Shown: positions 24,773-53,035 of the stretch, piece after piece | How the letters are laid out: each line of letters starts with the position of its first letter | Numbering within the stretch: position 1 is the first letter of the stretch | From: Escherichia phage EscoHU1 | Direction: 5' to 3' (one strand) | Length of the DNA stretch: 64,000 nt | Sequence record: NC_133119.1 | Program-made: the position numbers and the translations under genes | The notes under the pieces: model-generated | Told to the model about the DNA's origin: nothing | Database searches by the model: none | What the model saw: the letters and a program-made list of their open reading frames with translations, nothing else

Positions 24773-24780
24773 TAATAAAC

Positions 24781-24818
24781 CCCAGTGGATTGTCCACTGG
24801 GGTTTTCTTTTATTTAGC
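24781..24818. terminator. bidirectional terminator between convergent early and late modules
   Basis: CCCCAGTGGA-TTGT-CCACTGGGG flanked by A-run upstream and TTTTCTTTT downstream. Confidence 0.7.
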
Positions 24819-26897
24819 AAGAAGTTGTTTTACCAATTCCTTGAGTTCATCAATTTCTTGCTGCTGCTTCTCAACCACTTCGTTAAGCTCGTTAAAAGCA
24901 TTAACTAGCAAAGCGTTTACACCAGCATGAGATACGCCGAGCATACTATCTTCTTTTTGTGGTTCGATCTTATATACTGCCTCTGGAAGAACAGCCTGTA
25001 CATCCTGGGCTATAACACCAGCTTCAATGTTATAGGTAGTATCTTTTTCCTCTTTAAGGGTACTTCTCTTATAATATGTATAGCCTACCAGAGATTTAAC
25101 CTTATCGCGAGCATTCTCAATTTCCTTGAGGTTGGCTTTCATGCGTATGTCAGAAGTACTTACCCATTGACCTGCAGCAGCAGTACCACCACTATCAAAG
25201 CGATATTCAGCACCTTTACAGTATAAGCTAAGCTGTGCACCACCAGCAGCCCATAGCACAGCATCCATACCAGATACCCAATCCACACCCCATTTAACAC
25301 TTTTCCATATAGCGTACGCTGCATCCGTAGCTTCATGCTCTACTAGCACTCCACAAGGTCTATCTCTCCAAGCAGTAAATGCCCCTCCTTTAATAGTACC
25401 ACCTACTAAGCTTCCAGCACCACCATCTGCTATACCCATACTTTTGAAGGTAGCTCGATCCCGTATTGGATCAGCTATTAAACCAAATGCCCCATGTACT
25501 TGTTGCCAAACACCCCAAGTACCACTATCCATTGTACGTGTGCAGATAGAACTTTTCCAAGCACCTGTAAATAACGTAGCCCTTTGAGTTCTATAATTTG
25601 GATCAGGGTGGACCAAAGTTTCTAGAAAGAACCAAGCATCTTCTAATCCTGGGATTTGTTGGAAAGGGCGTACGCCTACAATATTAGAGCCAGGAGAAGG
25701 AGGAACTGTTAAGGTTGAATTAAAGTCTATACTGTCAATATTAAAACCTCCTGGATATCTTCCAGATATAGACTGTAGCAAGCCCCACTCACTTAATTCT
25801 AGATTTCTTCTAGCCTGAGCAGCTGAATTAGCCCCGGTACCTCCACTAGCTATTCCTAGCGGTATTTCCTGATTAGTTTCTAGATTGTAAGCTCCCCAAA
25901 CCCCATCTGCTATTCTAAATATCTTCTTAGCATCAGGACTACTCATTCTAGTATCTAGGGCAGTCTGACTAAATCTATTAATACCAAATTTAGTTTTAGC
26001 CCCTTCTATAGAATTAGCCCCTGTACCACCATTAGCAACTGGTACAGTAGACTGTGAATTGAATTGCTCTTGCCAACCTTTCCAATTACCAGTACCATCC
26101 AGAACGTTAGTCCAAGTACTTCCAGATAATCCAGTGGCTTTTAACATACCATACTGAGCAGCACCATTAATATCCACACCATGGCAATGGAAGTTATATG
26201 TCCACCATCCTTCAGTAACTGGAGGAATATGTGTAACACCATCTCCAGAAGAGTAGTATCCACTTTGTCCAGCGATTGCGATATAATTTAGAACATTCTC
26301 CCCATTAGGTATTACTTCAGCTAAGGCGCCAACTGGAACATTAAGATTTTTTCTTGCAGCTTTTGGAGTAGTTCCTCCAGTACCACCAAATGCAACTTTT
26401 AATGCTTGTACAGCCGCAGTAGAACTCTCAATTAAACCAAAATCTCCGCTATCATATATAAATAAAGAATATTTCTCATTGGGAGATACAATAAAAGTTC
26501 CATTACTCTGCTGACGAAGGCGTTCAACTTGTAAGGCCTTCTTAGCACCATCTAATGTAGTAGCACCAGTACCACCTTGAGAAATTTTAATAGCTTTAGT
26601 AAGTGCATTTAATTCTGTAATATCGTTATTAGCACCTTTAGCAGCTTTAGTATTTAAAGTAGTATTAATACCACCTAACGCAGTGTTGATATTACCAATT
26701 GATTCGTTAATACTATTGATAGATGCATCGGTAGCAGCTTTATCAGTATTATACTTTGAAATTTGTAGATATTTAGAAGTTAGCACAACAGCACCAGCTT
26801 CTCCGTCAATAGAGAAAACGCCGGCAACCGCGGCGTCTCTATTAACTACAACATAGGGGGCCATAGCCCCACTTTTTGGCATTAAATTACGTGACAT
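24810..26897 (-). CDS. L-shaped tail fibre protein B (LtfB-like) with C-terminal intramolecular chaperone domain
   Basis: 695 aa; repeated GGTGA fibre motifs; C-terminal SDIRMKANLKEIE...GVIAQDVQ chaperone-type domain. Confidence 0.75.
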   Translation of the reverse strand: MSRNLMPKSGAMAPYVVVNRDAAVAGVFSIDGEAGAVVLTSKYLQISKYNTDKAATDASINSINESIGNINTALGGINTTLNTKAAKGANNDITELNALTKAIKISQGGTGATTLDGAKKALQVERLRQQSNGTFIVSPNEKYSLFIYDSGDFGLIESSTAAVQALKVAFGGTGGTTPKAARKNLNVPVGALAEVIPNGENVLNYIAIAGQSGYYSSGDGVTHIPPVTEGWWTYNFHCHGVDINGAAQYGMLKATGLSGSTWTNVLDGTGNWKGWQEQFNSQSTVPVANGGTGANSIEGAKTKFGINRFSQTALDTRMSSPDAKKIFRIADGVWGAYNLETNQEIPLGIASGGTGANSAAQARRNLELSEWGLLQSISGRYPGGFNIDSIDFNSTLTVPPSPGSNIVGVRPFQQIPGLEDAWFFLETLVHPDPNYRTQRATLFTGAWKSSICTRTMDSGTWGVWQQVHGAFGLIADPIRDRATFKSMGIADGGAGSLVGGTIKGGAFTAWRDRPCGVLVEHEATDAAYAIWKSVKWGVDWVSGMDAVLWAAGGAQLSLYCKGAEYRFDSGGTAAAGQWVSTSDIRMKANLKEIENARDKVKSLVGYTYYKRSTLKEEKDTTYNIEAGVIAQDVQAVLPEAVYKIEPQKEDSMLGVSHAGVNALLVNAFNELNEVVEKQQQEIDELKELVKQLLAK

Positions 26898-26939
26898 TAA
26901 CTAGTACCTTTATAAGGGGGCTAGGCCCCTACTGTATTA

Positions 26940-29900
26940 TCATAGTGACGTTAAAGATGTAACAGCTTGCTTAAGTTGTTCTAACTCTTGCTCCAGTTTA
27001 TTCATCTTATTACCCATATAAACCATTGCACACGCCATATCTGTTAGAATAACATTACTATCAAGAGCAAGTGTGTCATCATTTCTGTCAGTTTCAATCT
27101 GGCGATCAATGTATTCCTCACCATTTTCATCAACCCCGATCACATCCTCAAATACTGGTGAACCTGGGACAAGTTTCACATATTGCGGATCGATTTTTAA
27201 CAGGTCTTGAGCTATCAGGCCAAAACGCTGAATATCAGATCCATTGTATTTGAACATCGTTGGCAACCATTGCATTACTCGATCATAACTTTCCTTTCCA
27301 TCTGTGTAAACAATTTCTTTCTTTAAGTCACGATCAGATGTTGGGTTTTTTGCAAAGTCATAACCAACCCCCCACATATCTCCGGGCGAGTTTGCCCATG
27401 TTGAGAAAGTACCATTTACGTTAAACTCAAATCCTCTATGTTTATCGTTATCACCTAACAGCTTGAGTATTGTCCTGGACCATCCTTGGGCACCAGGGGA
27501 TAACATACCAATTGCGAAACGTATGTTATAACCATTTGGGGTTGAAGTACCCCCAGCAACTACCGGACTAAATGACCCGTCGTTATTTACAGTGGAGATA
27601 GTGTTATAAGGAATTGCATTTCCTGATTGTGATGCTTCTATACCCCATCCATGATTATTGTAAAGAGCACCTGCATTGACCGCCCTGGTTTGTAAGTAAC
27701 CTTGCGGATAGAAATCAAAATCAGTACCATCAATTCCAGGACTATAAACTCTTAGGCGATGACATTTAATCTTGTCTGAACCAGATCTAACAGCCCCGGA
27801 TAATGACATATCATTATACCAGTTATACCTAGTAAAGTTAGCCCAATCATCCAAAGGAACACTAGCCCCGGCATAAAGTTGGAGATTGTTTTGCTCACCC
27901 CCTTCCATTGTAAAACTATAATTAGCACCAATTTTTATTTTCTGAGCACTAAATTGACCATTTTCGTCAAATTGGTAGAAAGCTGTTTTATCGGCGGTTG
28001 AGTTTGTAGTCCTTATTGTTGTTTTCGCTACACCAGATTGAAGTTCGTTGTAAATAGAGGAATACGAAATTAAGTTTCTAGAAGCATCGTGGTTCCTCAT
28101 ATAAAACAGCCCAGAATTGAATCCATTATATAAGCTAGCGGCAACCTGAGCAAAGGTAGGTGTATTAACTTCGCCTAATTCTATGTTAGCCCTTGCATCT
28201 GCTGCATTCGTCGCCCCTGTACCACCATTATTAATAGCTAGAATTCCTTGGGTATCATTATTTAAATCAGGCTTATTTGCAGAACCGTATAGAATATTAG
28301 TATGGATAGTAGGATTTTCACCATCTAATTGATTATCATTTATAGTCCCGACAAAAACAATACCACTAGAGTATTGGGGGCAAATAAATGAGTGAGTATC
28401 CGCAGTTTTAGAATAAAATCCTGCAGAATACGATGGTAGTCCACCTATTCCTGTGTCATTTCTATAGTAGCCAGAACCAAAAGCTCTCATAGCTTTAAAA
28501 AGAGATACTAAATCAGGCTCGTTTAAAGTGAGTCCTGCACCACCTAAGCCAAAAGCACCACGAAGTAAAACCTCACCATTAATGCCATCCCAAACATTCT
28601 TAGTAACAACGTTACCTAGAGAAATATTACCACTCTCGTCTGGGCGAATAGTTCCGTTAACCATTGCTACATAAGGAAGTTTAATAGCTCCGGTATCATC
28701 AGCAGGACCAATTCCATTCACAGTAGTGATATAGGGAATTTGCTCTTTAATTGCGCCAGCATCTTCCTCTCCCTTAGTTGGAGCGCGGAATGCTTGCCCT
28801 TGCATCATATCTGGTAAACGGAACGTCGTAGATCCATCACCAGTGGAGAAGTAAAGAGTTGCACCAGCTTGCCATTGTTCTTCAGTAACAGAAGGGATTA
28901 AGCCAGCCTCAATAGCTTCCCAAGTATCTGGATAATCTACACGAAGAACTTCACGACCATCAGCAGGAAGAACACCAGGGTAGCCAACACCTGAATCTTT
29001 ATCATAAGGGAACCAAGTAACTTCACCCAGCCATAAAGAGGGGTTACCCCCAGGAAGAGTAATCTGTACGTTACCTGCGTCATCTGCATGAACGTTATTG
29101 ATTGATACGAGTTTCTGTTCAATTTCTACTAATTCTAGGACAGGAGCCTCAGCAGTACCAGCAACCTTATACCAACCATATTTTGAATCAGTTTGGTTCC
29201 AGACTAGAATCTTTTCACCCAGAACACGATTTGCAACATCTGCATCAGCTTCTGCTTTTGTCTTATAAACTTTGATGAAACCAGATATATCTTCTTTATC
29301 CAGCTTGCTATCTACAATCTGAGCTGCGCGATCGGCTTCAGCCTTAGCACGATTTGCCTCAGTAGTAGCATCTACAGCCTTATCTCCTGCTTCTACAGCA
29401 GAACCAGCCGCATTAGTTTCTGATTCTTTAGCATTTAATTCTGATTGTTTAGCGGAAGCAGCATGTTCTCCAGCAGTTGTAGCAGCAGCTTCTGCACCTG
29501 CTTTTGCTGTTTCAGCACCAGTCTTAGCAGTTTCTGCAGCTGTCTGAGCTTGTTGAGCCGCAGTTTTAGCTTGTTCGGCAAGTCTACGACTGGTCTCCGC
29601 ATTTTGAGCAGCTAATTCAGCAGAATTCCTGAATCCTTTAGATTCTTCCGCCGATGTAGCGGATGCTTCAGCACTCTTTTGTGACAGACCAGCTTGTCTC
29701 TCAGCTTCCGCAGCAGATTCCGCAGATTGAGTTGCAGATGTTTCAGAAGAAGTAGCATAAATTGCAGCTAGGTTCTCCGAGTCCTTAGCATTTGTTTCAG
29801 ATTCTTTTGCTGCAATTTCGGAATCTTTTGCTGCCGCAGCAGAAGCAGCAGAGGCTTCTACAGCAGCAGTTAATTCACTAGCAGTAATAGAACTAATAGA

Positions 29901-30002
29901 ATTACCTAAAACTACTGTATATTTAGGATACTTACTAGCAGTAGTTGTAGTGTCATCTATGTTCAGAATCTGCTGTACAATAATTTTAGTTTTAAGTGCC
30001 AT
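26940..30002 (-). CDS. L-shaped tail fibre protein A (LtfA / pb1-like) with C-terminal intramolecular chaperone domain
   Basis: 1020 aa; Ala/Glu-rich N-terminal coiled region; C-terminal SDRDLKKEIVYTD...GLIAQDL. Confidence 0.8.
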   Translation of the reverse strand: MALKTKIIVQQILNIDDTTTTASKYPKYTVVLGNSISSITASELTAAVEASAASAAAAKDSEIAAKESETNAKDSENLAAIYATSSETSATQSAESAAEAERQAGLSQKSAEASATSAEESKGFRNSAELAAQNAETSRRLAEQAKTAAQQAQTAAETAKTGAETAKAGAEAAATTAGEHAASAKQSELNAKESETNAAGSAVEAGDKAVDATTEANRAKAEADRAAQIVDSKLDKEDISGFIKVYKTKAEADADVANRVLGEKILVWNQTDSKYGWYKVAGTAEAPVLELVEIEQKLVSINNVHADDAGNVQITLPGGNPSLWLGEVTWFPYDKDSGVGYPGVLPADGREVLRVDYPDTWEAIEAGLIPSVTEEQWQAGATLYFSTGDGSTTFRLPDMMQGQAFRAPTKGEEDAGAIKEQIPYITTVNGIGPADDTGAIKLPYVAMVNGTIRPDESGNISLGNVVTKNVWDGINGEVLLRGAFGLGGAGLTLNEPDLVSLFKAMRAFGSGYYRNDTGIGGLPSYSAGFYSKTADTHSFICPQYSSGIVFVGTINDNQLDGENPTIHTNILYGSANKPDLNNDTQGILAINNGGTGATNAADARANIELGEVNTPTFAQVAASLYNGFNSGLFYMRNHDASRNLISYSSIYNELQSGVAKTTIRTTNSTADKTAFYQFDENGQFSAQKIKIGANYSFTMEGGEQNNLQLYAGASVPLDDWANFTRYNWYNDMSLSGAVRSGSDKIKCHRLRVYSPGIDGTDFDFYPQGYLQTRAVNAGALYNNHGWGIEASQSGNAIPYNTISTVNNDGSFSPVVAGGTSTPNGYNIRFAIGMLSPGAQGWSRTILKLLGDNDKHRGFEFNVNGTFSTWANSPGDMWGVGYDFAKNPTSDRDLKKEIVYTDGKESYDRVMQWLPTMFKYNGSDIQRFGLIAQDLLKIDPQYVKLVPGSPVFEDVIGVDENGEEYIDRQIETDRNDDTLALDSNVILTDMACAMVYMGNKMNKLEQELEQLKQAVTSLTSL

Positions 30003-30424
30003 TATTGAGTTACTCCATCGCTGATGTATACTTTACCTTCCATAATACGGAAAGAACTGACTTCAGAGCCAATTACATCACGAGTCATTAGGATATCATA
30101 ATAACCAGCAAAACGTTGTCTTGGGTTATACTTATCACGTTCTTTAGATGCTTTTTCACCAATATTAGTAACGTCTGCAACGGAAAGACTAATTGCAGCA
30201 GCACCTTGAGCAGCATCAATAACACGAGTTTTAAAGTTAGCTAGAACCTCGGCGTTCTCATCTAAACTAGATTTAATAGTTCCTCGGAGTGAATACCCCG
30301 TCAAATTAACAGGAACTTCTGTTGGTGGATATACACTATCATCAACATCCATAAATTGCATGATAAGACCATAAGGTACTTTTTCATCAACAACAATATC
30401 AATAACTCGGTTTTCTGTACTCAT
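30002..30424 (-). CDS. tail collar protein (T5 p132-like)
   Basis: 140 aa; position between pb4-like and fibre genes; stop overlaps fibre start. Confidence 0.6.
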
Positions 30425-30429
30425 TATAA

Positions 30430-32487
30430 TTACCTTATATGGATATACCCACTATTTAGGTCTATCTTCATCTTGTAGTATGCTTCAGGATTCCCTGATA
30501 ATGCAGCATTTCTATCGTAGATTATATTAACACCGATTTGCGATAAGAAGGCATTTCCTGCCACAATCTTATCCGCAGTAACAGTTCCATTAACAATCAT
30601 ATTGCCATGAAGAACCATTGCAGGGTTAATCCATCCAGCCCCGTTCCATTGACGGGTAAATGCTGTTTGTGGAGCATTACTGTTAAATTGTGTTAGAACA
30701 TCGTATTTAACCGGAGGTTTTCCAAAGTTATTTTGAAAGAATGCATTAGCCTGTCCATCATCCCAACCACCTAATCCAGGAATACCCATGGAGTACATCC
30801 CAGGACCACGCTGTCCATCATGTCCTATAGTACCTTCAGTACCACTCCACTGAACTACATCAGACCAGCTAGTACCTTCAAGAAGTTTGTTAGTAACTGG
30901 ATCAAGTGTACCTGTAGTCGCATAGATATTTTGTGTCATATCTGTACGGTTAGGTGGAGTTTTTGACCAACCAGGAGGCGGATAATCTTGTTCTAGCGGT
31001 TTGGCCGGTAAAGATGTTGCTAACTTATAAACAAATACTGTTTGTTTACCTTGTAAACCAGTCCCAATATCTACGTCACCATTTGGCGTTCCAATTACTA
31101 CACCACTAGAGATACGCAGAGTAGTACCATCATAACGTATCCATTGTGTAGCATTACCAATGTCTAATTTAGCTTTGGCAGAGGTATTATCCATACCCAT
31201 CCAAATACCAGAGTTATTATCTCCCCAAGATTTACCTTGAGTGTAAATTGCTGGATTATCTTTACCAGACAAGTTAGTCATAATAAAGTTTGCAGCATTA
31301 ATATCTCTAGTAATTACTTTACCATCAACGTTAACCACACGATTTATAGGATCGAAAGAGATAGGTGCTTTTCCTTCTTCATCTAGCAGACCAATGTTAA
31401 TAGCACCAGTAGCTGCATCAATTAAGAATGTCTGTCTCCAGATTTCTCCATCTTTCATACTACCCTTAATAAAGGCGTAGTTAACATCAATACCCGTCTC
31501 ATTGACAAAGCTATTGTCTAGGGGAGTATCTTCATTCAGAATAAATGTTACAGGAGCTGATTCTGTTATATCTTGTTTGTTTGGTCCCCAGGCAATTGAT
31601 GATACCTTAAAAGTATGGTCAACTTTCCATGGGAATGATATAATCGTTGCAGCTCTAGCAGCGCCCACGTTTATCTTTTGAGCTTTAGCCCATCCGGTTT
31701 TAGCGTATTCCTCGGAGTTTATATAAGTAACCAAGAACTCACGAACGTTAGCACCAGCACCACGTTCCCAGTTCCACTCAATTCTAACATCATATCGTTC
31801 TTTACCATCAGCAATTCGTGCAGCTTTAAAAACAATATCGATAGGTGCAGTAGGAGGAACAAAGTTATAGGCTACAGTTAGAATATTAGGGAACTCATAG
31901 TATCCAGAAGAATCAACTGTAATACCATCAGGCATAGTTACTTGACCAGATATTCTGATCTTATAATCTCCGATAGGAACTCCACCAAATTTAATAGTAG
32001 AACCTAAAGCCCCAATGTAATACTTAGTCCAAGGACTATCTTCAGTAGCTGTACTTTTCAACTCAATAGTACAGTAACTTGCTTCACCAGTTGTTTCCAC
32101 AACAACTATCGGTGCGCCTACCCCAACATCCACGGGTTCTGACTCAGATCTTGCTGTAACAATTATTGGCTTCTCTTTTGTTTTAAAGTTAGTTTCATTA
32201 GAGAGGTTAATACCAATTTTTGCATTTAAAAGTTCTGAGTCAATAATTGAGTCATAAAAAGCTCCCTGAACCTGATAGGTAGTTGAGGGAGTTAAATTAT
32301 TGATCATAACAAAGAAAGTGTCGATTCCAGTGAAATCTCTTCTATCCACTTCTTCGCCAAGTTTAAGCCAGAATGATCTACCGATAACATCGTAGTCGGT
32401 ATAGATAGAATGCTGGATATACGCCATCGTATATCCAGTCATAATACTATTTAAGACCATCTTGGCTGGTGCATTATTCGAAATCAT
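30430..32487 (-). CDS. central tail fibre protein (T5 pb4-like)
   Basis: 685 aa; size and position match T5 pb4. Confidence 0.7.
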
Positions 32488-50903: not shown

Positions 50904-52685
50904 TTAGGTTAGGCGTTGAACTGTTACACGTAGTCTTGGTAAGAAGATAGCAGCTGCTTCTGCAGCATGAATGATAACACCCAACTCAACATTACCATTA
51001 CCAAGGTTTTTTACTGTATAAATATACCCATTTCTACGAAAGGCCATCTCATCAGGCCTACTAGCCCACGTTTGGGTATAACTGTAGGAAGTTGTACTAT
51101 GATATGGTACTAGATATCCAGGAGGCAGGGTAAGAATCTGATGGAATACACCATCACCAGCTGTATAACTTTGTTGACGTCTACCTTGTACCTGCCAAGC
51201 ACTACCACCATAAGTACGTACAGGCATACCAGCAGTATTAAGATTACCCATAATAACTTCAGTAGTTAATATAACAGTAGAGTGAGCATTTGGTAATCCC
51301 AACCAAACTGTAGCCAAAGGTGTGTAGAAGTCACCAGCACCAGGGTAGGATGGAGTTATATCGTCCCCTACATAAGTACTTGCAACGTTGCCTGGGAATA
51401 ACCTGAGTGGTACAGTACTAGGACTCCACACAGGTCCATGTTCATTACCAATGGAGTTGGTATTAGTATCTACATACCATTGTTTACCTACACCAAATTT
51501 ATATAGGCTAATTTGAGAAGCTGCACCCCCATAGTTAACGGGTGACCACAACCCACCGTTACTAGAGCCAATAAATTCACATCGTGCAGTATTATCACCG
51601 AAAACTCCGGTATACGCGGCGTTATTACCAACATACTCCATATCAGGGCGATAGCCTAAGTTTCCGAAAGCATTCTGGTTAATAAATTTATAGCCTGTAT
51701 TTGGTAAACTAACACCTTTAATAGTAAAGTTAGATGGAGATATTAGGATATCTGAACCGGTAAATGGATTACCAGAAACCCCCATACTACCATTAGAATA
51801 GCGCAGATTTAGCACATACCAAATAACCTTAGTTGGAGTAACGTTATACCAGTCCTGTACATATACCTTTCTAGCAGACTGAGCAGCCATATTAGAAGTA
51901 GAACCTCTACAAACATATATTTTTTCTGGATATGCAGGAGATTGGTAAAGAACGTTTACGTTATCTGGTAGTACGCCTTTCTTACCTGCAAAGCCACGAA
52001 TATTGGAACTACAAACGTAAAACCAATCATGGCCTCTACCAGCAGAACCAACAGGCGCTTGCCAGTTAGGTTCCCAATAATCGGCGTTACCACCATCTAT
52101 AGGAACTGTAGATACGCCCGTTGGAAAGCCCATTAATCCCCAGGCTCTGGAAATAGCTTCCCCTGCAGAAACACCACCAGGTCTAAAGATCTGGAAACCG
52201 GAAGATTGTAGTAAAGTACCCCCAGTTCCTTGCCTAGCAATAGATTCCTCATGACCCAGGCTACCATTATAAATATAAGTACCGTGAGCTAAACTATCAC
52301 CGATTGCAAAAGCAGATGTTATAGCCAGTTCAGCACCAGCACGTGGTTGATCTTCGAAGAATGTTAAGAACTGGCCAACCTGAGATTGTGTACCATTCAG
52401 AAATCCACGATGAGTACCGTTAATCTCAATAGCAGTTAATATAACTCTACCAGGATCATTGGATTTAATGTTTATAATATCCCAAGGCATCTGAGTAACA
52501 AAATACCCATTGCCTGCATCACCTAGAGCGGCCTCGTAAGTCCCATCAACCAGGACGAAAGGCATATCTGAGTGAAAGATACTATTAGTATTTGGAGAGT
52601 AGTGTTCACCAGTATCACCACCATTAGCAGCGTTTAGAGATAATACAGTTTTACCATCACTAAATTTTCCTGCGAAAAAACTCAT
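50904..52685 (-). CDS. receptor-binding protein (T5 pb5-like)
   Basis: 593 aa; N-terminal MSFFAGKF...GGDT; Gly/Asn-rich; adjacent divergent lipoprotein gene as for T5 oad/llp. Confidence 0.7.
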
Positions 52686-52710
52686 ACAATCTCCTTCTTT
52701 AAAAATGTAT

Positions 52711-52739
52711 TTGCTTAGATCCCTCTATTTTGCTATAAT
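52711..52739 (+). promoter_or_regulatory. sigma70-type early promoter (TTGCTT-17-TATAAT) for lipoprotein gene
   Basis: -35 52711-52716, -10 52734-52739, leader TTTATAAATTAAACAGAGGAACG. Confidence 0.65.
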
Positions 52740-52768
52740 ATATTTATAAATTAAACAGAGGAACGATT

Positions 52769-53035
52769 ATGAAAAAGTTACTAGCTATCGTAGTTGCAGC
52801 AGTAGTGTTGACGGGTTGTGTACCAGCTCCCGAGACATTTTGTAAGGCATATGTGAAGTCTTATGGTCATGTTGGTGAAGAACACTATGCTTTAGATATT
52901 CGAGAAGCACGTACTGTGGGCTACCGATTCCCTAAAACTCAGTTACGCACTAAGTTTGGGTGGTGGGATTTGTCACAGTTTGATCTCAAATATGGCGATT
53001 GCAAATTTAAATTAGAACAATCTGGTCACTTGTAA
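52769..53035 (+). CDS. llp: lipoprotein (T5 Llp-like, receptor-blocking)
   Basis: 88 aa; signal peptide with lipobox LTGC; divergent from receptor-binding protein gene. Confidence 0.7.
   Translation: MKKLLAIVVAAVVLTGCVPAPETFCKAYVKSYGHVGEEHYALDIREARTVGYRFPKTQLRTKFGWWDLSQFDLKYGDCKFKLEQSGHL

Follow-up and report, generated by a model that had tools for sequence, protein, structure and literature searches.

Two adjacent genes of the T5-like Escherichia phage EscoHU1, ltfA and ltfB, most probably (with a probability of about 0.82) encode a branched lateral tail fibre of the type described for phage DT57C, in which LtfB is attached to a segment of LtfA resembling gp14 of phage phiEco32, the two proteins carry different tips, and each ends in a self-cleaving chaperone. 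The genes are located in a stretch of 64,000 nucleotides from sequence record NC_133119.1, hereafter called the window. A previous reading of these letters from the sequence alone had placed two consecutive L-shaped tail-fibre genes at 24810-30002 and had predicted branched fibres with two receptor specificities. The table of open reading frames (ORFs) confirms the pair and adds its strand, the minus strand, on which both ORFs start with ATG and are separated by 42 nt (Table 1). Both products are assigned to the tail fibre proteins by PHROGs, and on sequence grounds ltfA and ltfB are two lateral (L-shaped) tail-fibre genes of an Epseptimavirus. The phage itself was reportedly published by Yamaki et al. 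in 2022 (Int J Food Microbiol 372:109680). In GenBank, the 1020-residue protein is EscoHU1 BDC47590.1, 'L-shaped tail fiber protein A', and the 695-residue protein is BDC47589.1, 'L-shaped tail fiber protein B', both as exact matches from end to end. The LtfA/LtfB reading is already known, as it equals the deposited annotation of EscoHU1, and the branched-fibre model dates from 2016.

Alignment to LtfA and LtfB of DT57C, a check suggested by the sequence-only reading, returned the same gene order together with conserved anchoring and junction modules (blastp). The DT57C-like arrangement that had been claimed is likewise found, both in the order ltfC-ltfA-ltfB and in the chaperone carried by each fibre protein. 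At the anchoring end, LtfA agrees with DT57C LtfA in every one of the first 40 residues (100% identity), and LtfA residues 1-230 share 49% identity with residues 1-215 of T5 Ltf (blastp). The structure of the DT57C counterpart of this N-terminal part has been solved (PDB 8hqz; Ayala et al. 2023, PMC10713586), and a sequence search of the Protein Data Bank (PDB) with LtfA returned DT57C LtfA 8hqz (E 1e-245) and SU10 gp12 7z47_D (E 2.7e-44, over LtfA 233-443). In agreement with the second of these matches, LtfA 223-442 is 42.5% identical to residues 239-461 of phiEco32 gp14 (blastp). The single Ltf of T5 gave no blastp match to LtfA 231-458. In DT57C, it is the gp14-like segment (LtfA 223-471) that was proposed by Golomidova et al. 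to contact LtfB (PMC4728585).

The proposed partner of this segment lies at the other protein's N-terminus. LtfB 1-56 is 64% identical to residues 1-52 of phiEco32 gp15 (blastp), and the identity to DT57C LtfB amounts to 92% over the first 40 residues and 58% over residues 1-174. By record counts, the dock segment occurs in 149 T5-like records (at least 80% identity) and about 91 records of the Kuravirus type, and the LtfB adaptor in 143 and 91 records, respectively. The phage collection contains 459 records with a T5-type Ltf N-terminus, so that dock and adaptor are present in about a third of them. Two phage groups that are not related to each other thus seem to carry dock and adaptor as a pair, and this near-equal distribution lends indirect support to a physical interaction between LtfA and LtfB. 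Within the dock, the stretch PGVLPADGREVLRVDYPDTWE...GDGSTTFRLPDMMQGQ (28800-29000, LtfA ~335-405) recurs in DT57C LtfA 609-665, DT57C LtfB 273-329 and phiEco32 gp15 257-308, and weak matches to it are also seen in tail fibres of Burkholderia, Yersinia and Achromobacter phages. This stretch presumably resembles a phage tail-collar motif; Pfam gave no such domain at E ≤0.01.

Beyond the junction, the two proteins go separate ways. The distal regions of LtfA and LtfB share only a 20-residue linker motif, GGTGA...ARxNLEL, and a weak similarity of the chaperones. On this comparison, each tip is a binding module of its own kind, a result that agrees with two ligands and is no proof of them. The LtfA shaft (459-611) still shows 29% identity to T5 Ltf 386-589. 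For LtfA 580-1020, the AlphaFold2 (AF2) model reached a mean predicted local distance difference test score (pLDDT) of 80.4, and a Foldseek search with this model gave the C-terminal domain of T5 Ltf together with its chaperone (4uw8) as the best PDB match, with a probability of 1.00 and a global template modelling score (TM-score) of 0.22-0.25. No enzyme fold was significant in that search. Tips with an enzymatic, tailspike-like function are unsupported, as Peptidase_S74 is the only Pfam domain in LtfA and the LtfA tip has no significant match to an enzyme fold. The shaft of LtfB is partially similar to the shaft repeats of phiEco32 gp14 and SU10 gp12. Apart from Peptidase_S74, Pfam gave only a sub-threshold SlyX hit in LtfB (19.2 bits, with a cut-off of 30). 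The homologue search with the LtfB tip was confined to the 8000 candidates that had most words in common with the query and returned 25 matches, none of which covered more than 63% of the query; full-length relatives such as ORF44 of phage SIY1lw were not among the matches returned.

Both fibre proteins had been claimed to end in an endosialidase-type chaperone, and this claim holds. Peptidase_S74 (PF13884, chaperone of endosialidase) scores above the curated Pfam gathering cut-off of 22 bits in LtfA (residues 889-943, 31.2 bits, E 2.6e-7) as well as in LtfB (residues 582-642, 54 bits, E 2.1e-14), and the two motifs GLIAQDL (LtfA 928-934) and GVIAQDV (LtfB 627-633) are present. The accompanying motif SDxRxK was only half right: it is found in LtfB (SDIRMK, 582-587) and not in LtfA (SDRDLK, 889-894), the form common to both being S-D-x-x-x-K, a pattern that also picks out S1264 of T5 Ltf. 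In each protein a lysine follows five residues after the serine (S889/K894 in LtfA and S582/K587 in LtfB). In an alignment of the LtfA distal region with 61 homologues, S889, D890, R891 and K894 are invariant, and in the corresponding LtfB alignment with 26 homologues, S582, D583 and K587 each reach a conservation of at least 90%. The LtfA of phage EH7, which shares 94% identity with that of EscoHU1, reads SDRDLNK in place of SDRDLKK, with Asn at 894 and the Lys one position further on. Fold and sequence searches agree with the domain assignment: after 4uw8, the next Foldseek match of the LtfA 580-1020 model is the MyRF ICA domain (7dc3, TMt 0.60), and the LtfB chaperone matches 6f45_A, a 'long tail fiber distal subunit', at E 1.6e-11. 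The chaperone is also the only part of LtfB that AF2 models confidently (block-mean pLDDT of 77-92 over fragment residues 241-346). Self-cleavage before S889 is predicted to leave a mature LtfA of 888 residues and 94.1 kDa, and self-cleavage before S582 a mature LtfB of 581 residues and 61.2 kDa.

Taken as a mechanism, the modules suggest the following assembly. LtfA would form a trimer whose three N-termini are inserted into the LtfC collar that encircles the tail tip, and an LtfB trimer would bind through its gp15-type adaptor of about 50 residues onto LtfA 231-458, so that each of the three fibres would be branched and bear two different tips. The C-terminal chaperones may aid trimer folding and then release themselves before S889 and S582, leaving products of about 94 kDa (LtfA) and 61 kDa (LtfB). 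Each tip, unrelated to the other, would reversibly bind its own kind of surface glycan, most likely an O-antigen, and such reversible binding could allow passage through the O-antigen layer until pb5 reaches BtuB. The steps of trimerisation, docking, cleavage and glycan binding are drawn by homology from DT57C, T5 and phiEco32. In DT57C and DT571/2, a swap of the LtfA C-terminus switches the O-antigen specificity, and LtfB confers a separate one (PMC4728585). A branch with two specificities is supported in DT57C by genetics and cryo-electron microscopy (cryo-EM) (PMC4728585, PMC10713586), and in EscoHU1 branching and dual receptor specificity are predicted by homology to the DT57C genetics (PMC4728585).

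The proposed receptor has its own counterpart in the window. At 50904-53035, the pb5 gene (593 amino acids, minus strand) lies next to the gene of the llp lipoprotein (88 amino acids, plus strand), and the two show 64% and 66% identity, respectively, to their counterparts in DT57C, a pair of the BtuB type. Secondary literature gives BtuB as the receptor of EscoHU1 and records plaque formation by the phage on E. coli O157:H7, several Salmonella serovars, Shigella sonnei and Citrobacter freundii; the identity of about 65% to the DT57C pair agrees with this use of BtuB.

Several points weigh against a branched fibre with two receptor-binding tips. The LtfA-LtfB or gp14-gp15 junction is not seen in any structure, and in the cryo-EM study of DT57C only the LtfA N-terminus was built, with LtfB appearing as weak density (PMC10713586). 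The SU10 paper names the homologous pair the 'proximal' and 'distal' parts of a single elbowed fibre. That dock and adaptor occur together is judged from record totals, not from individual records. The AF2 model of LtfB reached a mean pLDDT of 57.8, with the tip below 50, and a Foldseek search with it gave no match at E <0.1.

The naming used for SU10 leads to an unlikely alternative, a serial jointed fibre in which an unbranched, elbowed structure with one functional tip would consist of LtfA in its proximal half only and of LtfB in its distal one. The SU10 long tail fibre consists of a proximal gp12 trimer and a distal gp13 trimer joined by one elbow, and gp12 is the very protein that LtfA 233-443 matches. 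However, SU10 gp12 was built for residues 1-90 only, so that the junction is not resolved there either. Moreover, LtfA of EscoHU1 runs for about 430 residues past the gp14-like segment and possesses its own tip and chaperone, with invariant catalytic residues and under purifying selection, and in DT57C and DT571/2 it is the swap of such LtfA C-termini that changes the O-antigen specificity while LtfB gives another. A second fibre bound straight to the tail tip, by way of LtfC, pb4 or pb3 and not by LtfA, is less likely still. Three weak densities at the tail tip, visible in the DT57C maps at low contour, were tentatively assigned to LtfB (PMC10713586), which would suit this placement; yet the DT57C virion core lacks robust LtfB density, and the weak signal was interpreted in that study as C-terminal ends that fold back. 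The LtfB adaptor, judged by counts, is confined to phages with the gp14-like segment, including unrelated podoviruses without a T5-type tail tip, and T5 encodes no protein similar to LtfB.

A further alternative, decay or lack of expression of either ORF, which would leave the phage with effectively a single fibre protein, is highly improbable. Golomidova et al. (2016, PMC4728585) report genetic instability of two-gene ltf loci, with frequent reduction to one gene, and ltfA and ltfB of EscoHU1 contain an in-phase 18-nt repeat that could mediate such a reduction. Against this, both ORFs are uninterrupted and have the same length as their closest homologues (1020 residues in EH7 and 695 in SIY1lw), and a ribosome-binding site and a terminator are present. 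By the Nei-Gojobori method, the ratio of nonsynonymous to synonymous divergence (dN/dS) is 0.17 for LtfA against EH7, at a synonymous divergence (dS) of 0.22, and 0.10 for LtfB against SIY1lw, at a dS of 0.33; dS is thus substantial, and both genes are under purifying selection. A pseudogene, which the sequence-only reading had named as evidence that would speak against two fibre genes, is rejected, as both ORFs are intact and of full length with low dN/dS. The branched fibre is ranked first because LtfA has its own complete and conserved tip and chaperone beyond the dock and because the DT57C genetics assign separate O-antigen specificities to the two proteins.

The nucleotide sequence of the locus carries signals of its own (Table 1). 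Recombination between the two copies of the 18-nt direct repeat would remove 2196 bp and create an in-frame LtfA-LtfB fusion of 998 amino acids; spontaneous fusions of the LtfA-LtfB type have been reported for DT571/2-ABF. The position of the hairpin in the ltfA-ltfB spacer is occupied by a hairpin in EH7, DT57C and SIY1lw too, with different stem sequences, which suggests a candidate conserved RNA structure that could act as an attenuator, stabiliser or processing site. The terminator hairpin stands between the convergent ltfB and an 88-residue ORF downstream of dut, a position from which it is taken to close both the late (ltf) and the early (dut side) transcription units. At the corresponding position, T5 is annotated with an 'efficient bidirectional rho-independent transcription terminator'. 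A promoter scan gave sites that were not enriched (29 versus 23.6 ± 3.9 in shuffles), and no promoter is claimed.

Upstream of ltfA on the minus strand, the 140-residue ORF is identified by Pfam as LtfC and the 685-residue ORF that precedes it (30430..32487) as the straight-fibre protein pb4. The stop codon of ltfC shares bases with the start codon of ltfA in the string TAATG, and identical copies of the LtfC sequence are found on 48 Epseptimavirus contigs. Over its first 25 kb, the window matches Epseptimavirus phages (PECP14, Seabear and Stitch among them) at 98-99% identity, whereas the fibre locus reaches only 82-93% identity to any single phage, at partial coverage. Scans of the whole window for tRNA genes and against Rfam gave no matches. 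The MG065642.1 record 'Campylobacter phage A148' has a backbone 98.5% identical to the window, and a protein labelled 'Brucella melitensis' (P0005) carries T5-like fibre or backbone sequence at 82% identity. In the PQ773600.1 record 'Corynebacterium phage CPphiVTCCBPA_418' (41 kb), the identity ranges from ~69% for full-length LtfA to 97% for the LtfB N-terminus. These Corynebacterium-, Campylobacter- and Brucella-labelled records are probably contaminants or have mis-assigned hosts.

The lateral fibres of the Markadamsvirinae consist of one or two (or more) proteins and are hypervariable (BASEL paper). In the phage collection searched, the closest full-length relatives are the LtfA of EH7 (OR413347, 1020 residues, 93.9% identity) and ORF44 of SIY1lw (PP105779, 695 residues, 94.8% identity to LtfB). 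The LtfB of EH7 (625 residues), however, matches that of EscoHU1 over residues 1-311 only, and the LtfA of SIY1lw (1117 residues) is 88% identical up to residue 612 and 36% thereafter. Neither phage has both EscoHU1-type fibres, so that the EscoHU1 locus is a different recombinant combination. Within LtfA, dS against EH7 rises from ~0 over codons 1-300 to ~0.8 over codons 751-1020, and the divergence is greatest at residues 761-800, with 65% identity. The mosaicism of LtfA and LtfB is a modular exchange of the kind that is usual for fibre tips. The tips of both proteins reassort independently among Epseptimavirus, and that of LtfA also with phages of about 50 kb (MikeNSara, atuna, slyngel and vojen), in which relatives of tip plus chaperone are found at ~45% identity over 98% of the length. 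No record in the phage collection searched combines an EH7-type LtfA tip with an SIY1lw-type LtfB tip. A speculative and rather unlikely reading is that this pairing might let the phage cross genera between E. coli O157:H7 and several Salmonella serovars, and that the NGGTGA repeat might act as a recurrent site of recombination by which the phage switches between branched fibres with two tips and fused ones with one. The SIY1lw paper describes that phage as lacking LtfB (PMC12887010). ORF44 of SIY1lw (L001, 5001-7088) starts with the same adaptor sequence as EscoHU1 LtfB, and the statement appears to be an annotation oversight.

As a re-identification of already annotated genes, in an architecture common among T5-like phages, the analysis adds nothing to biology. 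Its practical use is limited to the engineering of phage host range, for which the mapped modules (collar insert, dock, linker motifs, tips and chaperone cleavage sites) mark the points at which tips could be swapped.

Table 1. Features of the EscoHU1 lateral fibre locus (positions in the window)
Feature	Position	Strand	Description
ltfC	30002..30424	-	140 aa; collar protein anchoring lateral fibres to the tail; Pfam LtfC PF23926, E 1.9e-15
ltfA	26940..30002	-	1020-aa lateral tail fibre protein A, tail-attached fibre backbone
LtfA residues 1-230	29313..30002	-	N-terminal strands inserting into the LtfC ring, then Ala/Glu-rich trimeric coiled coil
LtfA residues 231-458	28629..29312	-	phiEco32 gp14 / SU10 gp12-like segment, proposed LtfB docking site
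LtfA residues 459-611	28170..28628	-	shaft segment; C-terminal end is the linker motif NGGTGATNAADARANIELGE
18-nt direct repeat, copy 1 (ltfA)	28213..28230	-	coding strand TAATGGTGGTACAGGGGC, encodes NGGTGA
LtfA residues 612-888	27339..28169	-	distal tip, presumed receptor-binding domain; all-beta in the AF2 model
LtfA residues 889-1020 and stop	26940..27338	-	intramolecular chaperone (Peptidase_S74)
GC-rich hairpin in the ltfA-ltfB spacer (26898-26939)	26916..26930	-	followed by the AAGG ribosome-binding site of ltfB
ltfB	24810..26897	-	695-aa lateral tail fibre protein B, proposed side branch
LtfB residues 1-56	26730..26897	-	N-terminal adaptor of phiEco32 gp15 type, proposed LtfA attachment
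LtfB residues 57-374	25776..26729	-	shaft; four GGTG(A/G) linker motifs, at residues 108, 171, 290 and 352
18-nt direct repeat, copy 2 (ltfB)	26017..26034	-	exact, encodes NGGTGA, same codon phase as copy 1
LtfB residues 375-581	25155..25775	-	distal tip, presumed second receptor-binding domain
LtfB residues 582-695 and stop	24810..25154	-	intramolecular chaperone (Peptidase_S74)
Bidirectional intrinsic terminator	24777..24805	.	perfect palindromic hairpin with 13-bp stem, T-runs on both strands, 4 nt past the ltfB stop

Other known systems provide further comparison for this locus. In the Kuravirus pairs phiEco32 gp14/gp15 and SU10 gp12/gp13 (PDB 7z47), gp14 and gp12 are 42-45% identical to the middle segment of LtfA. 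These phages are podoviruses, in which the fibre sits on an adaptor protein and not on an LtfC collar. The C-terminal chaperone regions of LtfA and LtfB have no blastp similarity to phiEco32 gp14, whereas gp15 does show such similarity. The Ltf of T5 (pb1; PDB 4uw7/4uw8) has, like LtfA of EscoHU1, a C-terminal chaperone with an S-D-x-x-x-K site. As the sequence-only reading had stated, T5 has one ltf gene, found at the corresponding position; it encodes a single protein of 1396 residues and, unlike in EscoHU1, there is neither an ltfB nor a gp14-like dock. The likeness of the LtfA tip to 4uw8 is only local, given the low global TM-score.

DT57C is the system that resembles EscoHU1 over the whole locus. 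The order ltfC-ltfA-ltfB is common to both, and the overlap of ltfC and ltfA is identical base for base. The LtfC proteins share 95% identity, and LtfA 1-458 of EscoHU1 is 84.5% identical to residues 1-456 of its DT57C counterpart (blastp). The N-terminal adaptor of LtfB is conserved as well, and both fibre proteins of DT57C end in a Peptidase_S74 chaperone, as they do in EscoHU1. The backbones differ, EscoHU1 being an Epseptimavirus and DT57C a Tequintavirus, and the EscoHU1 proteins are shorter (1020 versus 1076 residues for LtfA and 695 versus 788 for LtfB). The tips are unrelated, with an identity of 10-30% past residue 440 of LtfA and residue 120 of LtfB. By alignment, the modules for anchoring and junction are thus conserved between the two phages, and it is the tips that differ.

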